27,512 nt of DNA, from sequence record SRR22947727_1461; one strand, written 5' to 3'. Shown here piece by piece: positions 1 through 27,512 of the stretch; the first letter of the stretch is position 1; each line of letters starts with the position of its first letter. The position numbers and the translations under genes are program-made. A model generated the notes under the pieces. The model saw only the letters and a list, made by a program, of their open reading frames with translations. It made no database searches and was not told where the DNA came from.

Positions 1-502
1 GTCGAATTTGTGCTTTATTAGATAGACTATCACCATCTAATAGAGGTGACCATACTGTCAAAAGATTAAAGATTCTTTCAGAAAGAATATCAGGCGACCA
101 AGCGAAGAAATTCCATTTTCCATAAACCTCAATCCACTTATCGACCAAGTTTCTCGCTCTAACGCTTGCATATTTATCTTTCGTCACTGCCAAGTCATTA
201 AGCCAATGAAAACTATGCAACCAACGTGCAAACTGCTCAGAGGGAACAGCGAGTGTCCAGGGGTCACCCTGGGCCCCAACATCTAAATTTTGCTCTGAAT
301 TTTGAAAATGACCCTTCAATAAAGCCTTACCAATATCTTTATCTCCAAATATAAAAGAGGGCTTAGCATCATAAAATAAATCTGTTTTTCTGACATTTAA
401 TCTCAGGGATCTAATTGGGGCCTCTAGCTCAACACACCATCTATGCAAGCCTGAGGTAAGAATAGATCTGAGTATTAGCAAAGAAGAAATTCGGTTTGCC
501 AT
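1..502 (-). CDS. Heparinase II/III-like family protein, N-terminal part (runs off the left edge)
   Basis: Manual translation from ATG at 502 is open to position 1: MANRISSLLILRS...GDPWTLAVPSEQFARWLHSFHWLNDL...ARNLVDKWIEVYGKWNFFAWSPDILSERIFNLL. The LHSFxWLxDL and AWxPxxxxxR motifs and the position after rpe fit the conserved alphaproteobacterial heparinase-like gene. Not in the ORF track. Confidence 0.8.
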   Translation of the reverse strand, partial: MANRISSLLILRSILTSGLHRWCVELEAPIRSLRLNVRKTDLFYDAKPSFIFGDKDIGKALLKGHFQNSEQNLDVGAQGDPWTLAVPSEQFARWLHSFHWLNDLAVTKDKYASVRARNLVDKWIEVYGKWNFFAWSPDILSERIFNLLTVWSPLLDGDSLSNKAQIR

Positions 503-534
503 AACAGTTTCAAATTAAACATTTAGTCATATAG

Positions 535-1203
535 TTACTTTGTACTTTTTTTACGAAGGGCTAATATATTCTCTTTGTAATTTCCTTGACCCTTAAAAAC
601 AGCACTGCCAGCAACAAGTGCTGTAGCTCCAGAATCGATACAAAGCTGAGCAGTGTCTGGATTTACACCGCCATCAACTTCAAGTATAATATCTCTTCCA
701 GATGATTTAATCTTATCGGCTAGAATTCTTATCTTATTTAATTGTGAATGAATAAAACTTTGACCGCCAAATCCTGGATTAACGCTCATAACTAAAATTA
801 AATCCAGTTCCTCAATTAATGTATCAACAACGTCTGGATGTGTTCCCGGATTTAGAACAATTCCTGCCTTTGCCCCGCCTGCTTTTATAGCCTGCAAAGT
901 TCGGTGTGTATGAGGCCCCGCATCAGGATGTATACTTATATAATCAGCACCTGCCTTGATAAAAGGGTCAATCAAATAATCCACAGGCGAAACCATTAGA
1001 TGAACATCAAAAGGTTTACTCGTCCGCGATCTTATCGCTTTGACTACCATAGGACCTATTGTTAAATTAGGTACATAATGGCCATCCATAACATCAATAT
1101 GAATCATATCTGCGCCAGCTTCATCTATGGCTTCAATTTCTTTTCCAAGGTCTGAAAAGTCTGCAGATAATATAGATGGAGATATTAATAGTTTACGAGT
1201 CAT
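535..1203 (-). CDS. rpe: Ribulose-phosphate 3-epimerase
   Basis: SPSILSADF, HIDVMDGHYVPNLTIG, DVHLMV, MSVNPGFGGQSF, EVDGGV motifs. Confidence 0.98.
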   Translation of the reverse strand: MTRKLLISPSILSADFSDLGKEIEAIDEAGADMIHIDVMDGHYVPNLTIGPMVVKAIRSRTSKPFDVHLMVSPVDYLIDPFIKAGADYISIHPDAGPHTHRTLQAIKAGGAKAGIVLNPGTHPDVVDTLIEELDLILVMSVNPGFGGQSFIHSQLNKIRILADKIKSSGRDIILEVDGGVNPDTAQLCIDSGATALVAGSAVFKGQGNYKENILALRKKSTK

Positions 1204-1300
1204 TATTCACTATTACCAGCCCAATACCCCGTACGCAAGCAAAGTAAATATTTCCATTTATACTTCTAACTTCTTAGTAACCTAATTAACCAAGCACATT

Positions 1301-2650
1301 TCATGAACTATTCGACCTTTTCATTTTAGCTATAAAAAAACCATCCATTCCACCTTCATCTGCTAAATAATGAGGTAGTGTTCTTACAAAGCCACCCTCA
1401 AAAGCTTCAAAAGGCAAATCTAAACCATCAATGTTTTTGATAGCCTCCAAGGAGAAATGAGGATTTCTTTTTAGAAACTTATCAATCCTAGGCTTGCCTT
1501 CTGCAGATAGCAATGAACACGTTGAATAAATGAGTACGCCGCCGGGTTTTACAAAACTGGCTGACTTATTAAGTAATTGATCTTGGATTTTAATTAAATT
1601 CGAAAGATCCTTTGGTTTTCTATTATAGAGAACATCTGGATGACGTCGGAATGTACCTGTCGCTGTACATGGAGCATCTAGCAATACAGCGTCATAGAAA
1701 TTTTCATTAGAGTCCCAATCTAATGCATCTTGACATATTATATCAGCTGATAAATTTGTTCTCTTAAGGTTTTCCTTTACCCTACCAAGTCTGGATATAG
1801 ACTTATCCAGCGCTGTAACCAGAGCACCCATAGAGGCAAGTTGCATTGTTTTTCCTCCTGGTGCGGCGCACATATCTAAAACTCTTTTACCGCTTAGGGA
1901 CCCTAATAATTTTACAGGAATACTTGCTGCTATATCTTGAGCCCACCATTCACCCTCAGAGAAGCCTGCTAGCTCTGTTATATTGCCAATTTTATTAATT
2001 CGAACAGAGTTTTTCCCTATAATCTTGCCGCATAACTTATCTGCCCATATACTTTCATTAGACTTAACTGTCACATCAAGAGGTGGTTCCTGTGTTAGTT
2101 GGATACTAAATTTACGACTAGCCTGTCGTCCGTAATCAGACTCCCATTCTCCTAAAAGCCAAGAAGGAATATTTATTTTAGGGGGCTCCTGAGCAGCTAA
2201 CTTGCTACCAGAATCTACCACCTTACGCAAAACAGCATTAGTTAAGTTAGCAAATCCCTTAGAAGAATTTCTTCCTTTAAGCATTGCAACTGTTTCTCCT
2301 ACTGCTGCATGTGGAGGCGTTCCAAGATAGATAATTTGTGCCGCGGCTGTCTGAAGGGCAGCATAAATAAGTTTGGGTGGGTTCTGGCGCAAAAAGGGCT
2401 TTAGAGCTGAGTTTATTTGGCCCATTCTCCTAAAAGTTGTAGCAACAATTAATCGAACAAACGCTCTGTCTCGACTTTCCAGCATCGCATAATCTTTTTG
2501 AGAAGATATTACTTGTTGTAATGGCAAGTTCTTTTCCATAACCTCCTTAACACACAAAGCCGCCAATCTCCTTGATATAACGGAATTAGAATCAATATTT
2601 TTTTTGCTGCCAATACGATTGGTTTTATTTTTCATATGATGCCAATACAT
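1301..2650 (-). CDS. rsmB: RsmB/NOP-family RNA m5C methyltransferase with N-terminal NusB-like domain (start may be ATG 2635)
   Basis: DMCAAPGGKT SAM motif; DAPCTATG and YSTCS contain both catalytic Cys; NusB-like N-terminus (PPHAAVGETV, FANLTNAVLRK). Confidence 0.92.
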   Translation of the reverse strand: MYWHHMKNKTNRIGSKKNIDSNSVISRRLAALCVKEVMEKNLPLQQVISSQKDYAMLESRDRAFVRLIVATTFRRMGQINSALKPFLRQNPPKLIYAALQTAAAQIIYLGTPPHAAVGETVAMLKGRNSSKGFANLTNAVLRKVVDSGSKLAAQEPPKINIPSWLLGEWESDYGRQASRKFSIQLTQEPPLDVTVKSNESIWADKLCGKIIGKNSVRINKIGNITELAGFSEGEWWAQDIAASIPVKLLGSLSGKRVLDMCAAPGGKTMQLASMGALVTALDKSISRLGRVKENLKRTNLSADIICQDALDWDSNENFYDAVLLDAPCTATGTFRRHPDVLYNRKPKDLSNLIKIQDQLLNKSASFVKPGGVLIYSTCSLLSAEGKPRIDKFLKRNPHFSLEAIKNIDGLDLPFEAFEGGFVRTLPHYLADEGGMDGFFIAKMKRSNSS

Positions 2651-2728
2651 TATATTTAAGGTTTGGTAACTACTATGAAAAGGTTTTTAATTGTTTAAAT
2701 TAAATAAAACACTATAGTTTCAATTGTT

Positions 2729-2929
2729 ATGAGTAATGATCAGTATATCAAAAACTATAATAAAGTTATAAGCCCTGCTGCGCAAAGAGCACTGAAAGAA
2801 GCAGAAGAACGTCGCAAAATTCAGCACAAACAAGAAGCCAAATTAGCTAAAGAAAAGGGCGGACCCAAAGGGGCGGAGCCAACGCGTTATGGTGACTGGG
2901 AACGCGGTGGTATTGCTTACGATTTTTAA
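2729..2929 (+). CDS. DUF1674 protein (SDHAF4/Sdh8-like succinate dehydrogenase assembly factor homolog)
   Basis: C-terminal GGPKGAEPTRYGDWERGGIAYDF signature. Confidence 0.93.
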   Translation: MSNDQYIKNYNKVISPAAQRALKEAEERRKIQHKQEAKLAKEKGGPKGAEPTRYGDWERGGIAYDF

Positions 2930-2931
2930 TA

Positions 2932-3426
2932 CTAGAGTTTAGCCCTTTTTTCATGCAATTTAAAGGCGCTATGAAGGGCTCTAACAGCTAACTCTGTGTA
3001 TTCAGCATCTATTAAGACAGAAATCTTTATTTCTGAAGTTGCTATTACAGCGATGTTAATACCGCGCTCAGCTAGAGCTTCGAACATTGTTTGCGCTACG
3101 CCTGTATGGCTACGCATACCTATCCCCACCACGGAAACTTTAGTTACATTTTCATCAAACTTTATATCATTAAAACCTATAGATTCTTTAGAATCCTGTA
3201 GGGTTTTAAGAGCAGTATTTAAATCACGTTTTCCAATTGTAAAAGTCAAATTAGCGGCATTATCAGTACGTGATATTCCTTGGACTATCATATCTACACT
3301 TATATCGGCATTTGCCAGAGCAGAACAGACCTTTGCTACCACTCCCGGTTTATCCGCTAAATTTAAAAGTGTAATTTGCGCCTCATCACGCGAATAAGCA
3401 ACTCCAGATACAACTCTTTCTTCCAT
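2932..3426 (-). CDS. Putative aspartate kinase beta subunit from an internal in-frame start (164 aa, ACT domains only)
   Basis: Minus strand reads AAT-GAGGA-TAAGAAT-ATGGAA: SD-like GAGGA (3438-3434) 7 nt before in-frame Met261 (MEERVVSG), at the kinase/ACT boundary. Confidence 0.6.
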   Translation of the reverse strand: MEERVVSGVAYSRDEAQITLLNLADKPGVVAKVCSALANADISVDMIVQGISRTDNAANLTFTIGKRDLNTALKTLQDSKESIGFNDIKFDENVTKVSVVGIGMRSHTGVAQTMFEALAERGINIAVIATSEIKISVLIDAEYTELAVRALHSAFKLHEKRAKL

Positions 3427-4206
3427 ATTCTTATCCTCATTACAGACTAAAGTTCCTGGATTTGGTTTTCCAGCTTCTACCATTGACGTCAAAACACGTA
3501 TGGGTAAATTATTATTCATTGCCAACTCCACAGATCGAGTCTGAAGGACTTTTGCACCCAAAGAGGCTAATTCCAACATTTCTTCGAACGCAATAAAGTT
3601 CAACCGTCTAGCATCCTCAGCTATTCTGGGGTCAGTTGTATAAATACCATCAACATCTGTGTAAATATCACATCTATCAGCTTGTAATGCCACGGCCAAT
3701 GCAACAGCTGAGGTATCAGACCCTCCTCGTCCGAGAGTTGAAATTCTTCCATCTTCACTAATACCTTGAAAACCAGCAACGACAGCAACTTTACCCTGCT
3801 CCATAGATGAACCCACCTTAGAGCATTCAATTTTAGAAATTCTAGCCTTCGAATAAGATTTATCAGTTCTAAAAGGAACTTGCCATCCAAGCCAAGATCG
3901 AGCGCTAACGCCTCGACGTCTTAATGCTATAGCTAAAAGGCCCGAGGTCACTTGCTCTCCAGTTGCTACAATAGAATCATACTCATCACTTATATCACCA
4001 CCCGTTATTTTTCCTTGATTGACCTTATCAGAGTCTAATTCATCCACTAATGATACAAGCTTATTAGTTTCGCCGGACATAGCCGAAACAACAACCGCTA
4101 CCTCATTACCTGAATTTACTTCGGATTCCACAAGCCTAGAAACGTGCCTTATCCGATCCAAGCAGCCAACTGACGTGCCGCCAAACTTCATGACTATTCG
4201 ACCCAT
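2932..4206 (-). CDS. lysC: Aspartate kinase (alpha subunit)
   Basis: MKFGGTSV, VVSAMSGET, TLGRGGSDTSA, DVDGIYTTDPR, two ACT domains ending TSEIKISVLI. Confidence 0.98.
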   Translation of the reverse strand: MGRIVMKFGGTSVGCLDRIRHVSRLVESEVNSGNEVAVVVSAMSGETNKLVSLVDELDSDKVNQGKITGGDISDEYDSIVATGEQVTSGLLAIALRRRGVSARSWLGWQVPFRTDKSYSKARISKIECSKVGSSMEQGKVAVVAGFQGISEDGRISTLGRGGSDTSAVALAVALQADRCDIYTDVDGIYTTDPRIAEDARRLNFIAFEEMLELASLGAKVLQTRSVELAMNNNLPIRVLTSMVEAGKPNPGTLVCNEDKNMEERVVSGVAYSRDEAQITLLNLADKPGVVAKVCSALANADISVDMIVQGISRTDNAANLTFTIGKRDLNTALKTLQDSKESIGFNDIKFDENVTKVSVVGIGMRSHTGVAQTMFEALAERGINIAVIATSEIKISVLIDAEYTELAVRALHSAFKLHEKRAKL

Positions 4207-4365
4207 TAGACTTCCTTTTAATCCATTAGCTTTTTAATGGGCTAAACCAATATTACAAGTAAAGAGATTTTAAAAATATTCTTCGAACACAAATAAGGTA
4301 ATAAAATTTTCCTTTTAAAAAAACCGTCTTATATTTGTATATAAACGTATTTATATCGATATATT

Positions 4366-5145
4366 ATGCTAGGAAAAATAATGAGAAAGAATAAAGTGTC
4401 ACCTGAGAAACCCTTAAAAACATCTGTTGACCCAGATGAAATGGCAAGTTTTTCAAGAATGGCTGATAACTGGTGGGACCCGAACGGTCCTTTTAAACCC
4501 CTCCATAAAATGAATGGAGCCAGATTAAAGTTCATTATTGATAACCTCTGCGAACTTTTTCATAGAGATCCAAAAGACAAAATTCCACTTAAAGGGTTAC
4601 GAATACTAGATATTGGTTGCGGAGGAGGTTTGTTATGCGAGCCACTAACTAGGCTCGGCGCCGAAGTGACAGGAGTTGACGCATTGGAACGCAACATACA
4701 AACAGCTAGAATTCATTCAAAAAAAATGGGATTAGAGATAAATTACCTACATGGGACTATTGAAAATTTAGTACTATCAAGCAATACAAAATATGATGCG
4801 GTACTGAACATGGAAGTTATTGAACATGTTAATAACCAGTCTACATTTATAAAAAATTGTGGAGCTATGCTTTCTGAAGGCGGAATAATGTTTTGTTCAA
4901 CTATAAACAGAACTTTTAAGGCTTTTACTTTTGCAATTTTAGGGGCTGAATATATTTTACGATGGCTTCCAAAGGGCACCCATCAATATAGTAAATTTGT
5001 TACACCAGATGAAATTCAAAGATGGTTAAAGGATGCAAGCTTACTTCCTAGGCCTTGCATAGGTATGACACTCAATCCTCTAAAAAACACATGGAGTTTT
5101 ACAGAAGACCTCCAAATTAATTATATAACCATAGCAACCAAATAA
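4366..5145 (+). CDS. ubiG: Ubiquinone biosynthesis O-methyltransferase (start 4366 or 4381)
   Basis: WWDPNGPFKPLHKMN, LDIGCGGGLL, MEVIEHV, STINRT, GAEYILRWLPKGTH. Confidence 0.97.
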   Translation: MLGKIMRKNKVSPEKPLKTSVDPDEMASFSRMADNWWDPNGPFKPLHKMNGARLKFIIDNLCELFHRDPKDKIPLKGLRILDIGCGGGLLCEPLTRLGAEVTGVDALERNIQTARIHSKKMGLEINYLHGTIENLVLSSNTKYDAVLNMEVIEHVNNQSTFIKNCGAMLSEGGIMFCSTINRTFKAFTFAILGAEYILRWLPKGTHQYSKFVTPDEIQRWLKDASLLPRPCIGMTLNPLKNTWSFTEDLQINYITIATK

Positions 5146-5147
5146 AA

Positions 5148-5588
5148 TTAGTTTAATTTTTTCTTGTTTTTAGGCGACACTGCTTTTGGTATTGCTGTTA
5201 GAGTGATTCCCTCATTATGAAGATCTTTCGCGTCACTCAAGCTTGCTTCTCCATAAATTTTACGCTCCTCCTTTTCACCATAATGAATGGCCCTTGCTTC
5301 CTCTGGAAATTTATCACCCACATACTCAAACTTATCTTTTATGTGCTGTCTTAATTTTCTAACAACAGAATTAAAATTTGAGAGATCTTGAATGTCCTTC
5401 GATGCAATCGCTTCTTTTTTTCTAGATGAGGATATATTGGGAGCCATAATCGCTTTATCAATTCTTGTTGAACTGCAATACGGACAACTTATAAGCAGTT
5501 TACCTCTTTGAGTCTCATAATCTGAAGAGTTCGAAAACCATGCCTCGAATTCATGTTCTTCAAAACAAATGAGATTATACTTAATCAT
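5148..5588 (-). CDS. DUF1178 family protein
   Basis: MIKYNLIC..HEFEAWF, CPYCSS, KAIMAPN, YVGDKFPEEARAIHYGE, IYGEA motifs; typical position next to the nitrilase. Confidence 0.92.
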   Translation of the reverse strand: MIKYNLICFEEHEFEAWFSNSSDYETQRGKLLISCPYCSSTRIDKAIMAPNISSSRKKEAIASKDIQDLSNFNSVVRKLRQHIKDKFEYVGDKFPEEARAIHYGEKEERKIYGEASLSDAKDLHNEGITLTAIPKAVSPKNKKKLN

Positions 5589-6397
5589 AACTTTAAATTC
5601 ACCTTATTGTATAAAGATGGTATATTTTTTCTAACCTGGTTTACTTCTCTTAGGTCTATATCACAACAAATATAGTCAGGTCGATTATTTTTAATAACAG
5701 ATCTAATTTTACCCCAGGGCCCTATAACCATAGAGTTTCCATAGGTACTTCTTCCATCTTCATGCAGGCCAACCTGAGCTGGCGCTATAACAAAACTTCC
5801 GGTTTCTATGGCCCTAGCCCTTAAGAGTATTTCCCAATGCGCTTTGCCTGTAGGAACAGTAAAGGCTGCCGGGATTGATAGTATATTAGCATTAGCTTGG
5901 GCATAAACTCTGTAAAGATAAGGAAAACGTAAGTCATAACATATTGAAAGGCCAATTCTAGCGGCTTCCACATTAACCAGAACAGGAGTGTCTCCAGCAA
6001 TGAACAAATTCGATTCTTGCCATATCTCGTCTTCAGATGCCTTGGCATCAAAAAGATGAATTTTATCATATCTGGCTTTTATTGTACCTCCAGCTCCAAA
6101 CATAAAGGATCGATTAATAGCTTTATTAAATTTAGCCTTAATTGCGAGAGATCCAACAAGTATATTTACTGATAGTTCTTTAGCTAATGCACTAAAAAGT
6201 TTGACCCCAGGGTCATGACTTTCTTCATGAATATTCTTTAAAAGTTCTTTTGGATTACGCTGTATTATATGGGTCATTTCTGGCGTAGCAATTAACTTAG
6301 CGCCATCTTTTGCAGCAGCTCTTATAAAATACTCGACCTCCTTTAGGTTACAGTTGATGTCTGAACCCGAACACAATTGGATAACTCCAACACGCAT
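5585..6397 (-). CDS. Carbon-nitrogen hydrolase (Nit1-like, probable deaminated glutathione amidase)
   Basis: Glu-Lys-Cys triad (TPE, YDKIHLFD, ICYDLRFP), PAAFTVPTGKAHWEILLRARAIE; coupled to grxC. Confidence 0.93.
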   Translation of the reverse strand: MRVGVIQLCSGSDINCNLKEVEYFIRAAAKDGAKLIATPEMTHIIQRNPKELLKNIHEESHDPGVKLFSALAKELSVNILVGSLAIKAKFNKAINRSFMFGAGGTIKARYDKIHLFDAKASEDEIWQESNLFIAGDTPVLVNVEAARIGLSICYDLRFPYLYRVYAQANANILSIPAAFTVPTGKAHWEILLRARAIETGSFVIAPAQVGLHEDGRSTYGNSMVIGPWGKIRSVIKNNRPDYICCDIDLREVNQVRKNIPSLYNKVNLKL

Positions 6398-6651
6398 TAA
6401 ATTAATAATTTGTCTAATTTACCATTGGCTTCTAATGCATGAAGGTCATCGCAACCCCCAATATGCCTTCCTCCGATAAAAATTTGCGGAAATGTGTTCG
6501 CACCAAAAGACCGTTCTCGCATTTCATGCCTAGTTTCTTTATTAAGATAAGCAGGTATCTCTTCATAAGTTACACCTTTTAAGTCTAATAAATTCTTGGC
6601 TCTCCAGCAAAAAGGGCACATCATTTTAGTGTATATCTCTATTTTAACCAC
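6397..6651 (-). CDS. grxC: Glutaredoxin 3
   Basis: CPFC active site, TFPQIFI, IGGCDDL, GKLDKLL; GTG start. Confidence 0.96.
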   Translation of the reverse strand: MVKIEIYTKMMCPFCWRAKNLLDLKGVTYEEIPAYLNKETRHEMRERSFGANTFPQIFIGGRHIGGCDDLHALEANGKLDKLLI

Positions 6652-23808: not shown

Positions 23809-25113
23809 ATGAAAATTGTTATGATCGGTACAGGATATGTTGGATTAGTATCTGGGGTTTGTTTCGCGGATTTTGGACATGAAGTGATTTGTGTCGATAA
23901 AGATGTTACCAAGATAGAAATGCTAAAGTCTGGTGAAGTTCCAATATTTGAACCTTATCTAGAGAATCTTATATGTAAAAATGTTCGTGCCTCACGTCTA
24001 AAATTTACAACAGACCTAAAAACATCAATGAAAGGTTCTGATGTTGTATTTATAGCTGTTGGGACTCCATCACGACGAGGGGATGGACACGCTGATTTAT
24101 CTTATGTTTATGAAGCAGCTAAAGATATCTCCAAAAATATAGAAAAATATACTGTTATTGTAACTAAATCTACAGTTCCCGTTGGCACTGGGGATGAAAT
24201 TGAAAAAATAATATCTAAAAATCATTCCATTGAAAAGTTTTCAGTTGTATCAAATCCAGAGTTCCTAAGAGAAGGGGCGGCAATCAAAGACTTCAAACAC
24301 CCTGATAGAGTAATTGTTGGTACAGAAAGCCCTAATGCTATTCAGGTCATGAAAGCCGTTTATAGGCCTCTATTTATCAACGAAACTCCTATATTGTTTA
24401 CAAGTCGCAGAACCTCTGAATTAATAAAATATGCATCCAACTCTTTTTTAGCAACTAAAATTAGTTTTATTAATGAAATGGCAGACTTGTGTGAGAACTT
24501 AGAAGCCGATGTTCAAACGGTGGCAAGAGGTATAGGTCTTGATAAAAGAATTGCACCTAAATTTTTGCATGCTGGCCCGGGTTATGGGGGCTCTTGTTTT
24601 CCTAAGGACACTTTAGCGCTAATACGCACTGCTGAAGAGGTGGGAGTATCTCTATCAATTATAAAAACTGTGGTTAAGTCCAATGAAGACAGAAAGTTAA
24701 AAATGGTTCAAAAAATCATCAATTTTTTGGATGGAGATTTAAAAAATAAAACTTTAGCTTTTCTAGGGTTATCATTTAAACCAAATACAGATGATATGCG
24801 TTCATCTGCAAGTGTGGCTATCATACCTGAATTGCAAGCAAAGGGAGCTACAATAAAAGCGTATGACCCTGCAGCCATGAAGGAAGCCAAAGGGATTTTG
24901 AGAAATATAAGTTTCGCAGAAAACCCGTACGATTGTATTGAGGGTGCTGACGCGCTTGTTATATTAACAGAATGGGATGAGTTTAGAGCACTAGACATGC
25001 AGCGTATAAAAAAATTACTTAAAAAGCCAAATGTGATAGACTTGAGAAACATTTACAAATCGAAAAATATGAAAAATCTCGGATTTAATTATGTAAGCGT
25101 TGGACGTCCATAA
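23809..25113 (+). CDS. ugd: UDP-glucose 6-dehydrogenase
   Basis: IGTGYVGL, KSTVPVGT, SNPEFLREG, GPGYGGSCFPKD, FKPNTDDMR; GAGGA SD. Confidence 0.97.
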   Translation: MKIVMIGTGYVGLVSGVCFADFGHEVICVDKDVTKIEMLKSGEVPIFEPYLENLICKNVRASRLKFTTDLKTSMKGSDVVFIAVGTPSRRGDGHADLSYVYEAAKDISKNIEKYTVIVTKSTVPVGTGDEIEKIISKNHSIEKFSVVSNPEFLREGAAIKDFKHPDRVIVGTESPNAIQVMKAVYRPLFINETPILFTSRRTSELIKYASNSFLATKISFINEMADLCENLEADVQTVARGIGLDKRIAPKFLHAGPGYGGSCFPKDTLALIRTAEEVGVSLSIIKTVVKSNEDRKLKMVQKIINFLDGDLKNKTLAFLGLSFKPNTDDMRSSASVAIIPELQAKGATIKAYDPAAMKEAKGILRNISFAENPYDCIEGADALVILTEWDEFRALDMQRIKKLLKKPNVIDLRNIYKSKNMKNLGFNYVSVGRP

Positions 25114-25165
25114 CAACTTTGCTTATTAATGTGATTATTATCTAATGAAAAATTAAGGCTATATT

Positions 25166-26980
25166 ATGTGCGGCATTGTTGGAATTATTGGAAATTCGTC
25201 TGTAACAGATCGTTTAATAGATGGTTTACTTCAACTTGAGTATAGGGGTTATGATAGCTCTGGAATAGCTGTACTTGATGATGGAAAACTTAAACGTGAG
25301 CGCTCAAAAGGTAAAATTAGTGGGCTTATAAGTAGAGTTTCAAAAAATCCTATCGACGGAGAGTCAGGAATAGCTCATACACGCTGGGCAACACACGGCG
25401 TTCCCAATGAAACAAATTCTCATCCTCACTTTTCAGGACGCGTCAGCGTTGTTCATAATGGGATAATAGAAAACTACTTGGAAATCAGGAAAGAGTTATC
25501 TCATCGTAATTTTTTAACTGAAACAGATACTGAAGTATCCGCTCACTTAATAGATGAATTTTTACAAAAAAACATGGAACCAAAAGAAGCATTCTCAAAA
25601 AGTTTACAAAAACTAAATGGAGCCTATGCATTTGCTGTTTTAATAGATGGATTACCAGGTCACATGTTTTGTGCAAGAGCAGGCTCACCATTGGCAATAG
25701 GTATCGGCGAAGGTGAAATGTACCTAGGCTCAGATGCAATGGCTTTAGCAAAGTTGACCAATAAAGTGATCTACCTTGAAGAAGGTGATTGGGCAATTCT
25801 CACTCCAACTTCCTACGAAATTTTTGATTATGAAAATAATAAAGTTACTCGCGATGTAACAATAGTTTCGGGCGGCCCAGCTATGGCAGAAAAAGGTAAT
25901 TATCGTCATTTTATGCTTAAAGAAATCTATGAGCAGCCTGAAACCATAGGCAGGACTTTAGGTATATATATAAATGACTACAATCTTTGTCCAAAGATAA
26001 CAGAGAATCTTGATTTTTCAAAAATAGACCGTGTCATTCTTATTGCATGCGGGACTGCAAACTATGCTGCTCTAGTGGCAAAATATTGGTTTGAACAAAT
26101 AGCAGGTATAGCCGTTGAAGTCGATATTGCCTCTGAATTTCGGTATAGACGACCTTTTTTATTAAATACATCTCTTTTCATTGCTGTCTCTCAATCGGGC
26201 GAAACAGCTGATACTCTAGCAGCTCTCAGATATTGTAAGAGCGCCGGTTTAAAAACTGCAGCTTTAGTAAATGTCTTAACCTCAACAATGGCTAGGGAGG
26301 CAGATGTTGCTCTACCTATTAATGTTGGACCTGAAATTGGCGTTGCATCAACCAAAGCATTTACATCTCAGCTTATCGCATTGGCGGCGCTGGCTTTAAC
26401 AGCAGGAGTTTCGAATGGCTCAGTATCAAAATCTTATCAAAAGAAGTTGATCAAAGATTTAATAAAAACACCCCGCTTAGTCAAACAAACGTTAAGGCTT
26501 AGCAATCAAATAGAGAAAATGGCATTCGATTTTTCAAAGGCTAAAAATGTATTTTACCTTGGCCGCGGAACACAAATGCCGATTGCACTAGAAGGTGCAT
26601 TAAAATTAAAAGAAATCTCCTATATTCACGCTGAAGGTTACGCAGCGGGAGAACTAAAACATGGACCAATTGCTTTAATTGAAGATGGAACACCTGTTGT
26701 GGTAATAGCACCGTTCAACGAACTATTTGAAAAAACAATTTCTAATTTACAGGAAGTTGCATCGCGTGGTGCCTCTATAATTCTTATTACAGATGAAGAA
26801 GGAGAAAAACATGCAGGTTCAATGAGTTCAAGTGTTATAGTCGTGCCCACATCTAATGATTTTGTTTCACCAATAGTAACTGCAATTTCAATTCAATTGT
26901 TAGCATACCATGCCGCCGTACACCTTGGTACAGATGTTGATCAGCCGAGAAACTTGGCTAAGTCAGTGACCGTAGAATAA
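25166..26980 (+). CDS. glmS: Glutamine--fructose-6-phosphate aminotransferase
   Basis: MCGIVG, LEYRGYDS, HTRWATHG, SQSGETADT, ELKHGP, C-terminal DQPRNLAKSVTVE. Confidence 0.99.
   Translation: MCGIVGIIGNSSVTDRLIDGLLQLEYRGYDSSGIAVLDDGKLKRERSKGKISGLISRVSKNPIDGESGIAHTRWATHGVPNETNSHPHFSGRVSVVHNGIIENYLEIRKELSHRNFLTETDTEVSAHLIDEFLQKNMEPKEAFSKSLQKLNGAYAFAVLIDGLPGHMFCARAGSPLAIGIGEGEMYLGSDAMALAKLTNKVIYLEEGDWAILTPTSYEIFDYENNKVTRDVTIVSGGPAMAEKGNYRHFMLKEIYEQPETIGRTLGIYINDYNLCPKITENLDFSKIDRVILIACGTANYAALVAKYWFEQIAGIAVEVDIASEFRYRRPFLLNTSLFIAVSQSGETADTLAALRYCKSAGLKTAALVNVLTSTMAREADVALPINVGPEIGVASTKAFTSQLIALAALALTAGVSNGSVSKSYQKKLIKDLIKTPRLVKQTLRLSNQIEKMAFDFSKAKNVFYLGRGTQMPIALEGALKLKEISYIHAEGYAAGELKHGPIALIEDGTPVVVIAPFNELFEKTISNLQEVASRGASIILITDEEGEKHAGSMSSSVIVVPTSNDFVSPIVTAISIQLLAYHAAVHLGTDVDQPRNLAKSVTVE
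26945..26980 (+). other. Conserved glmS 3' end (attTn7-type TnsD target and general integration hotspot)
   Basis: Encodes PRNLAKSVTVE*, the segment that TnsD recognises in Tn7. Confidence 0.7.
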
Positions 26981-26982
26981 GT

Positions 26983-27321
26983 TTGCAGGGGGTAGTTGGA
27001 AAAACTGCAGTTCCCCATCTTTGTTTCACAATCACAAGTAAATCAGGGGATTTGACTTACAATCAACCCTACTCAAAGCGACAGCAAACACTTCATCGTC
27101 TTATATCCTTTATGAATAAAGAGGAGAAGATAGGATATAGAACCATCGCAAGAAGGTTCAACTCGTGGGGTATCAAAACAACAAGAGGAAAGACTTGGTC
27201 ATCAGGTTCTGTGCATTCTGTTCTCAAGAGGAAGATACAAAGTGATGAACGCATTGAAGAACGAAAGAAAAAGCATCCAACCAAGTTAGAGAACTTTAGG
27301 ATTGAATACTTTTATGTTTGA
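26983..27321 (+). CDS. Stand-alone Recombinase-domain (serine recombinase DNA-binding, PF07508-like) protein lacking a catalytic domain
   Basis: GYRTIARRFNSWGIKTTRGKTWSSGSVHSVLK matches the IAxxLNxxGxxTxRGxxWxxxxVxxIL motif; TTG start 2 nt after the glmS stop; alternative ATG at 27112. Confidence 0.8.
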   Translation: MQGVVGKTAVPHLCFTITSKSGDLTYNQPYSKRQQTLHRLISFMNKEEKIGYRTIARRFNSWGIKTTRGKTWSSGSVHSVLKRKIQSDERIEERKKKHPTKLENFRIEYFYV

Positions 27322-27404
27322 TTACCTGATTACGACTTTTTTTATATTTTCTTTGTACTGGTTTTTTTATTTGTAATAAAAATTATCTACTTTACTCTGA
27401 TTTC

Positions 27405-27512
27405 ATGAGATTTTTTTTAATAATATTTGCCGTATGTTTTTATTCAAACGTAGGTTGGAGTAATAATTTAGAAACTTGTCTCAGCGGCAAATACCCCAGT
27501 TTATGTAAGAAG
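27405..27512 (+). CDS. Secreted Cys-motif hypothetical protein, N-terminus only (runs off the right edge)
   Basis: Manual translation MRFFLIIFAVCFYSNVGWSNNLETCLSGKYPSLCKK...: signal-peptide-like start, open to the window end. Confidence 0.65.
   Translation, partial: MRFFLIIFAVCFYSNVGWSNNLETCLSGKYPSLCKK

Follow-up and report, generated by a model that had tools for sequence, protein, structure and literature searches.

Why should a short open reading frame (ORF) with a recombinase-type DNA-binding motif begin almost directly behind an intact glmS gene? The question is raised by a 27,512-nucleotide (nt) stretch of sequence record SRR22947727_1461 (hereafter the window, meaning that whole stretch), in which glmS (25166–26980, plus strand), a 604-aa ORF for glutamine–fructose-6-phosphate transaminase (TIGR01135, E 1.7e-234; NF001484, E 1.9e-243), ends in the residues KSVTVE and a stop codon. 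It is followed by a 112-codon ORF (ORF112, 26983–27321, plus strand) that starts with TTG 2 nt past that stop. A reading made from the letters alone (the sequence-only reading) had taken the junction for the left attachment site (attL) of an element entering the last glmS codons, and the small protein for a dedicated directionality factor or repressor, or for one half of a split recombinase. ORF calls bear out the ORF and its TTG, an attL-type junction is supported, and the core lies where that reading had put it; of the suggested roles, the split-recombinase half fits best, as a gene cut at its own element-borne attachment site (attP), and the directionality factor or repressor is not supported as the ancestral state. 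ORF112 is probably the severed 3' end of a large serine recombinase (LSR) gene that contains its own attP and is split when the element integrates into the end of glmS, which as the integration target is left intact.

ORF112 has a single Pfam match at E ≤ 10, to the Recombinase family PF07508 (E 1.6e-5; 25.5 bits against a cut-off of 21.1), and this match is partial: residues 47–85 (27121–27237, plus strand), a recombinase-type helix-turn-helix, align with profile positions 15–53 of 102. The same search, to E ≤ 10, detected neither the Resolvase catalytic domain (PF00239) nor the zinc ribbon (PF13408), both of which had been noted as missing beforehand, and no NCBIfam family matched. By its sequence, ORF112 reads as a piece of an LSR gene and not as a whole LSR. 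It is more than a chance frame, as indicated by the size of its family, its dN/dS and the pLDDT of its AlphaFold2 model (the latter two given below): a profile scan of 1.84 billion representative proteins yielded 169 clusters at E ≤ 1e-10, and no description was found in the literature searched, as anticipated for a recurrent, poorly described family.

The closest fused counterpart is P0015, a metagenomic LSR of 710 aa with a Resolvase domain (residues 14–95), a Recombinase domain (197–288), a zinc ribbon (306–373) and a second, partial PF07508 stretch. In a search limited to longer proteins, P0015 residues 599–710 matched ORF112 with 90% identity over 100% of ORF112, and the identity extends upstream of the TTG through RRIS, the translation of positions 9–18 of the attachment core plus 2 nt. 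Protein-level homology to the element begins at 26971, within the last glmS codons, and the open frame extends back across the core to 26962. The interval 26962–27321 (plus strand; called ORF 26983–27321) is referred to here as the C-piece, the putative 3' part of a split LSR gene, encoding the end of a linker and the C-terminal domain (CTD). Six further relatives (24–34% identical to P0015) have the same build: five are full-length, and P0032, a long match in the family scan, is an N-terminally truncated LSR continuing into the CTD. The core-encoded peptide precedes the CTD in these fused relatives, and because the seven fused proteins (six complete, one N-truncated) align end to end at 24–34% identity, the fused build must be old. 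An accidental read-through fusion in P0015 was rejected in view of the six relatives sharing its build and of the circular element described below. ORF112, collinear with the LSR C-terminus after the core-encoded peptide, belongs to the CTD family of this glmS-targeting LSR clade.

Among 46 relatives of P0015, six are ~700 aa long and carry the CTD, eight end in (S/T)(V/I)TVE, which bears out the recombinases with glmS-like ends mentioned in the sequence-only reading, and 16 end otherwise, several having read the core in another frame. P0015 itself had no match in IMG/VR, and in JGI metagenomes only C-pieces and remnants, with no full gene, were matched. Apart from these, in a 523-aa protein (P0016) the last 400 residues of a glmS product continue in frame into a C-piece that shares 53% identity with ORF112; the glmS tail at its junction is shifted by one base, probably by an error or mutation, and the protein is an independent instance of glmS/C-piece adjacency. 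Two ~500-aa Resolvase-domain proteins (P0154 and P0165) carry three or four tandem recombinase-type helix-turn-helix copies (PF07508/PF20552), a different architecture in which the same module is reused.

The attachment core, TCAGTGACCGTAGAATAA (26963–26980, plus strand), is an 18-nt instance of the consensus TCNGTNACNGTNGARTAR and consists of the glmS codons S-V-T-V-E-stop. It occurs once in the window, and the same core was found inside the LSR gene of the circular element, at both ends of an integrated element and in tandem arrays behind glmS. On its element side lies the putative P' arm of attP, GTTTGCAGGGGGTAGTTGG (26981–26999, plus strand), a half-site whose reverse complement encodes QLPPAN. 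Translation of the reverse complement of 26981–27002 gives FQLPPAN, and P0015 has NQLPPAN at residues 584–590, left of the core and at the spacing that the arm geometry predicts; thus, the window arm and the P0015 gene appear to hold the two halves of one palindromic attP. The crossover dinucleotide AC (26969–26970, plus strand; core positions 7–8) is placed by inference from the dyad center of the inverted arms, not by mapping. Among 27 cassettes (26 from arrays and the circular element), the end arms of 20 pair at 12 or more of 20 bases, and the dyad center falls between core positions 7 and 8 in 19 of these 20 clearly paired cassettes. This layout is that of a serine-integrase site with a central dinucleotide. 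The contigs of G001 (99% identical) and G019 (77%) both terminate at 26970, the putative crossover.

The element was found as a circle, in integrated form and as empty sites. The circle (L065, from IMG/VR) is 10,388 bp long with a 123-bp terminal repeat and encodes an LSR of 703 aa (P0194), whose gene spans the contig ends and is intact. Its attachment site, AATTGTCCAATCCGAAGTAATCAGTTACTGTGGAGTAGTTCGGATTGGACAATT (1472–1525), lies inside the P0194 ORF and has the core TCAGTTACTGTGGAGTAG between perfect 16-nt inverted arms, so that attP within the integrase ORF is observed here directly and, judging by the P0015 protein, probably holds for the window lineage as well. No capsid genes turned up on the circle, whose other recognizable genes encode a small resolvase, a GIY-YIG protein and a phrog_225-like protein.

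The integrated form is seen in G002, a Thioglobus single-cell genome, with the order glmS, core, C-piece, ~10 kb of cargo, small resolvase, LSR body and second core. The LSR body (573 aa) matches P0015 residues 10–601 (E 1.9e-102), and the gene pieces thus lie at opposite element ends, the C-piece at attL and the body 11 kb away at the right attachment site (attR). The second core translates as NSVTVE-stop, the end arms are inverted repeats (17 of 20 nt), and synonymous codons of the glmS tail differ between attL and attR. Just outside attR, in inverted orientation and preceded by a degenerate core and arm, lies a diverged C-piece-like ORF of 116 aa (L039, 5650–6017, plus strand; PF07508, E 4.7e-4). 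Both complete elements encode a small resolvase/invertase (L039 8220–8831, 203 aa; L065 4741–5277, 178 aa), directly beside the LSR in G002 and a few kb off on the opposite strand in L065, which possibly serves multimer resolution of the circle.

C-pieces occur in marine Proteobacteria. At eight of 10 C-piece loci in genomes, the end of glmS lies upstream on the same strand, and in five of these eight it abuts the C-piece, which bears out the similar small ORFs behind glmS that the sequence-only reading had mentioned. In the window's genus, 11 of 15 glmS loci extend to the gene end, and 10 of these 11 are empty sites of the kind that had been asked for, with a single core followed by chromosomal genes. 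One genome (G010; L061, 2164–2204) has a second, slightly altered copy of the glmS tail 2 nt past the first; the 20-nt footprint is consistent with a past insertion that was then lost. No true C-piece homolog was found among 101 relatives.

Comparison of these states places attP within the LSR gene, has the gene split on integration with the glmS frame kept, and attests empty sites. The proposed sequence of events is as follows. The stretch 26963–27321 would be the attL junction of an LSR element targeting the last five glmS codons and the stop. In this clade, the LSR gene would hold its attP (the 18-nt core and two inverted arms of ~16–20 nt) translated as a disordered linker, joining a complete LSR body (Resolvase, Recombinase domain, zinc ribbon with coiled coil, and beta-rich C-terminal region) to an extra 105-aa CTD with a second recombinase-type helix-turn-helix. 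The gene would be whole in the circular element. Crossover between attP and the glmS end at the central AC, presumably by the usual serine-recombinase double-strand cut and rotation, would leave the CTD-coding piece right behind glmS (as ORF112), carry the LSR body to the opposite end, attR, and rebuild the glmS tail from element-borne synonymous codons. The enzyme would change from full-length in the circle to CTD-less in the chromosome, and the loss of the CTD may alter its behavior; the split would then be a built-in directionality or commitment switch that works without a separate directionality factor.

The AlphaFold2 models are in keeping with such a construction. ORF112 (pLDDT 88.5; 54 homologs) is predicted to form a strand (residues 9–18), three helices (32–47, 52–62, and 74–95) and a second strand (101–111) that pairs with the first. 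The best structural matches in a second look were LSR recombinase domains, 9dxh_A (Z 7.0, rmsd 2.9 over 69 residues) and Bxb1 9iub_D (Z 6.7), both of which are middling values; Foldseek with the CTD model gave no match at E ≤ 1e-3, and the CTD profile had one chance-level match (E 0.69) among PDB sequences. In the full-length model of P0015 (pLDDT 84.1), the only long stretch of low confidence apart from the termini is 570–600; it covers the arm- and core-encoded residues (584–604), which lie between the folded body and the folded CTD (607–709). Thus, the att site is probably housed in a linker tolerant of sequence constraints.

Several observations weigh against this account. The window contig shows attL only and ends 190 nt past the C-piece, and the nearest genome (G001) has neither a C-piece nor a P0015-like LSR. 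Logan contigs from four marine runs, one from each of four studies, break or diverge at 26970–26989, and among the contigs listed for these runs none spans 26970 with at least 31 nt on each side, nor do they show joints at the att site; the window junction therefore rests on its own assembly and on analogous junctions elsewhere. The attP of P0015 is deduced from the protein and not read in DNA. Joining the LSR body of G002 to its C-piece frame needs a −1 shift at an A9 run, and 16 of the 46 P0015 relatives stop no more than 3 aa past a KKK tract, such that in some lineages the LSR may simply stop ahead of the core. At the G002 locus (L039, ~6497–6520, minus strand), the body stops four codons after the A9 run, and the frame through the core is −1. 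This A9/KKK pattern suggests programmed slippage, or lineages in which the LSR ends before the core; short and long isoforms could result, through programmed frameshifting or transcriptional slippage, or the pattern may stem from decay or sequencing error. All six close copies examined in the window lineage keep a TTG immediately behind the core, and a free CTD could therefore be made. Four of five further C-piece genomes lack a serine-recombinase (Resolvase) catalytic domain in their assemblies; many C-pieces are therefore orphans, whose selection in place the split leaves unexplained. Finally, the idea that CTD loss acts as a directionality or commitment switch is favored, but we hold it at somewhat under an even chance. 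An integrated element would make the CTD-less body only, yet circles exist; therefore, either the integrated-state form or a supply in trans must excise. The main alternative to the switch is a pure lock, with excision solely in trans, as proposed for archaeal 'suicidal' integrases (PMC7253208).

The orphan C-pieces are also what speaks for the best-surviving alternative, an unlikely one in our view, in which the C-piece is an inert scar with no present role, i.e., a recombinase pseudogene or an attL orphaned when the rest was deleted. It would fit the decayed pieces and LSR 3'-end remnants seen in arrays (L043, L046, and the first cassette of L026) and the 20-nt scar with a second core in G010, and the window ends too early to show an LSR. 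Against it, the frame is intact across 119 codons, and the break falls exactly at the att core and not at random. Copies 93–98% identical to the window's C-piece occur in four other contexts, and ORF112 compared with three of them gives a dN/dS of 0.00–0.15. Being a statement about present activity, the scar reading is compatible with a split-gene origin.

The strong purifying selection on the C-piece, and its persistence intact in genomes with no detectable LSR, lend something to a second alternative, in which ORF112 is a working stand-alone DNA-binding protein (a directionality factor, a repressor, or a trans partner of a truncated recombinase) whose translation would start at TTG 26983, coupled to the glmS stop. 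A TTG stands just after the core in the window and in L043, L044, L045, and L046 and would yield a whole domain, no terminator-like site lies in the glmS/ORF112 gap, and 147 of the 150 best family members in the representative library are no longer than 195 aa. Gene callers would, however, yield small ORFs from integrated pieces anyway, and the TTG belongs to the att arm. No start codon is conserved across 14 C-piece copies: L029 has none before its last eight codons, L024 has none ahead of the helix-turn-helix, and L025 and L026 have one only just ahead of it. In several copies, the predicted fold, with its conserved N-terminal strand and helix, needs residues upstream of the first start codon. 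In 13 of the 14 copies the frame continues upstream across the core, the one exception (L045) having no recognizable core, and the CTD is the integral C-terminus of the seven diverged LSRs. A stand-alone protein is not supported as the ancestral state of ORF112, and as an account of the locus we consider it improbable.

That the junction belongs to another glmS-associated element, Tn7-like or a tyrosine-integrase island, deserves next to no credence: glmS is the classic Tn7 target and G038 carries a 27-kb island at the glmS end that has no LSR of the P0015 family, but the junction here lies inside the last glmS codons and not past the stop, LSR coding sequence follows on its right, and the repeat is 18 nt long with LSR-type inverted arms. 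The G038 island (L073/L074, G038:C1, 793227–820325) was dropped as an element of the same kind because it is bounded by a duplicated 84-nt stretch from the end of glmS (28 codons, 93% identical) and lacks such an LSR, and a different integrase type therefore uses the same gene end. A recombinase of G108 was likewise set aside: this unrelated 519-aa LSR (L047, G108:C2, 322–1881, minus strand) ends in GGIEPPTS, a typical translation of a tRNA 3' end, and so has a different target. Its gene seems to overlap a tRNA-derived attachment site, i.e., the same principle at another target. No Tn7 end or tns gene is in view, as the sequence-only reading had stated, which holds trivially within the 532 nt that the window extends past glmS; no Tn7-specific search was made.

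Returning to the split LSR gene, its surroundings in the window are brief. The first cargo gene is present as a start only (27405–27512, plus strand), with 36 codons encoding a hydrophobic, signal-like N-terminus and the 3' end open at the window end; it has no Pfam match and fits the secreted-protein gene expected at this position. Between 26700 and 27512, no promoter-like sites were found on the plus strand and no terminator-like sites, and no Rfam family was detected within 25000–27512. Compared with L043, L044, and L045, window 27322–27400 loses similarity within 8–70 nt past the C-piece stop. The 3' flanks of close C-piece copies therefore differ, each context having its own cargo behind the C-piece, and this points to a second boundary prone to recombination.

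Behind glmS in other marine genomes, tandem repeats of the core lie on the glmS strand: 10 within 10 kb in G004 (SAR86), five each in L026, L030, and L031, four in L024 and two in L023. Arrays of at least two clustered cores (2–10 copies) are present in 18 of 41 SAR86 genomes, two of 41 Thioglobus, one of 41 Methylophilaceae and one of 61 window relatives (G019, same genus). Chance was rejected as their source, a reversed-pattern control giving one match against 81 real ones in the 41 SAR86 genomes. The units between cores measure 0.3–5.5 kb, and 23 of 24 have their longest ORF in the direction of glmS. When the right arm of a site is compared with the reverse-complemented left arm of the following site, the two match (median local score 11, against 5 for 1030 control pairs), with 16 of 26 same-cassette pairs above the controls' 95th percentile; arms flanking one core are not complementary (median 6, controls 5). 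A recombinase is missing from most units. Restriction systems are found in units that begin with a C-piece (type III in L031; MrcB-like/HNH and DpnI-like enzymes in G004), and signal-peptide (secreted or membrane) proteins are the products of many small units. In L024 (SCGC AAA007-O20, 414–6122), glmS is opposite in strand to a four-core array, which begins 550 nt away from the 5' end of the gene; a separate core and a C-piece arm stand at the glmS 3' end, an arrangement suggestive of an inversion between sites.

From the shared core and geometry, we infer that this LSR clade builds the arrays. A wider proposal, to which we give about even odds of being right, is that the glmS stop region is the docking site of a serine-recombinase gene-cassette platform in streamlined marine bacteria, a functional analog of integrons or of the staphylococcal cassette chromosome (SCC). 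Small circles of 0.3–3 kb, usually with one ORF and each with a palindromic attP around a glmS tail, would be stacked head to tail and co-oriented behind glmS. Mobilization would come in trans from visiting LSR cassettes, which have an unbroken gene of their own only as circles, and the split, possibly together with frameshifting at the pre-core poly-A, would replace a separate directionality factor.

In a full-text literature search (supplements not covered), no LSR with an internal attP, no serine-recombinase element at glmS and no glmS cassette arrays were found to be described; the marine mobile-element papers checked leave glmS unmentioned in their main text, although their supplements may list such elements. 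If the split design is real, it offers a natural test case for LSR direction, in which the enzymes of circle and chromosome differ by one DNA-binding domain, with a bearing on the use of LSRs in genome engineering, where control of reversal normally needs a second protein. The cassette arrays behind glmS, in 18 of 41 SAR86 genomes, would be overlooked gene-content variation in abundant ocean bacteria, and their larger units include restriction systems. The glmS att sites also break metagenome assemblies at a predictable nucleotide.

Several known systems share parts of this design. Phage LSRs (phiC31, Bxb1, and A118) have the same Resolvase, Recombinase and zinc-ribbon domains with coiled coil, and att sites of ~50 bp with inverted half-sites and a central dinucleotide. 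Here, in contrast, an extra CTD with a second recombinase-type helix-turn-helix is present, attP lies in the gene and shares an 18-nt core with the chromosomal site (attB), and, where the phage systems use a separate directionality factor, none was identified. Tn7 (TnsABC+D), a transposon that inserts downstream of the glmS stop, likewise exploits the conserved glmS 3' end as a safe, universally present target; the element described here is not Tn7-like at attTn7, since its homology starts inside the glmS codons, and its junction points to conservative site-specific recombination. The arrays resemble integrons in their fixed adjoining site, their small, mostly single-ORF, co-oriented cassettes and the cassette-specific imperfect palindromes around a conserved core. 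The integron attC palindrome is contiguous, whereas here the arms sit at opposite cassette ends and would meet only in the circle (same-core arms, median 6, against same-cassette arms, median 11), and the core encodes the end of glmS. The ORFs of the array loci include no evident IntI, and no tyrosine integrase was seen to be involved, although no search aimed at IntI was made.

SCCmec elements, moved by the LSRs CcrAB or CcrC, insert in the last codons of rlmH (orfX), leaving the gene intact between short direct repeats, and form tandem arrays that include recombinase-less members; they are tens of kb long, live in Firmicutes, and their ccr genes are not split by their own site. Insertion at the 3' end of a housekeeping gene and tandem recombinase-less units are common to both, with LSR catalysis being probable in the present case. 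The differences are the target (glmS here, not rlmH/orfX), the 0.3–3-kb single-gene cassettes, and an LSR gene split by its own attachment site.

For that last property, the parallel lies with the SSV-type (type I, or 'suicidal') tyrosine integrases of archaeal viruses and plasmids (SSV1, pTN3, and pT26-2), in which attP is translated inside the integrase ORF, integration splits the gene into pieces at opposite element ends, and the split is thought to control directionality (PMC7253208). These enzymes target tRNA genes, and the design is described there as 'so far restricted to archaea' (PMC7253208). The glmS LSR clade likewise appears to carry attP in the gene and to leave the pieces at opposite ends. 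In SSV-type integration, the catalytic part loses a short N-piece and both fragments are inactive, whereas here only an accessory CTD would be removed, and a tyrosine recombinase acting on tRNA genes contrasts with a bacterial LSR acting on a protein gene. The clade is neither archaeal nor of the tyrosine type: it works like that family without being a member of it. If the reading is true, the self-splitting design, described as confined to archaeal tyrosine recombinases (PMC7253208), extends to bacteria and to the unrelated serine-recombinase superfamily, and would therefore have arisen independently. The closest known mechanism is that of the SSV-type integrases, and the closest lifestyle is that of SCCmec.

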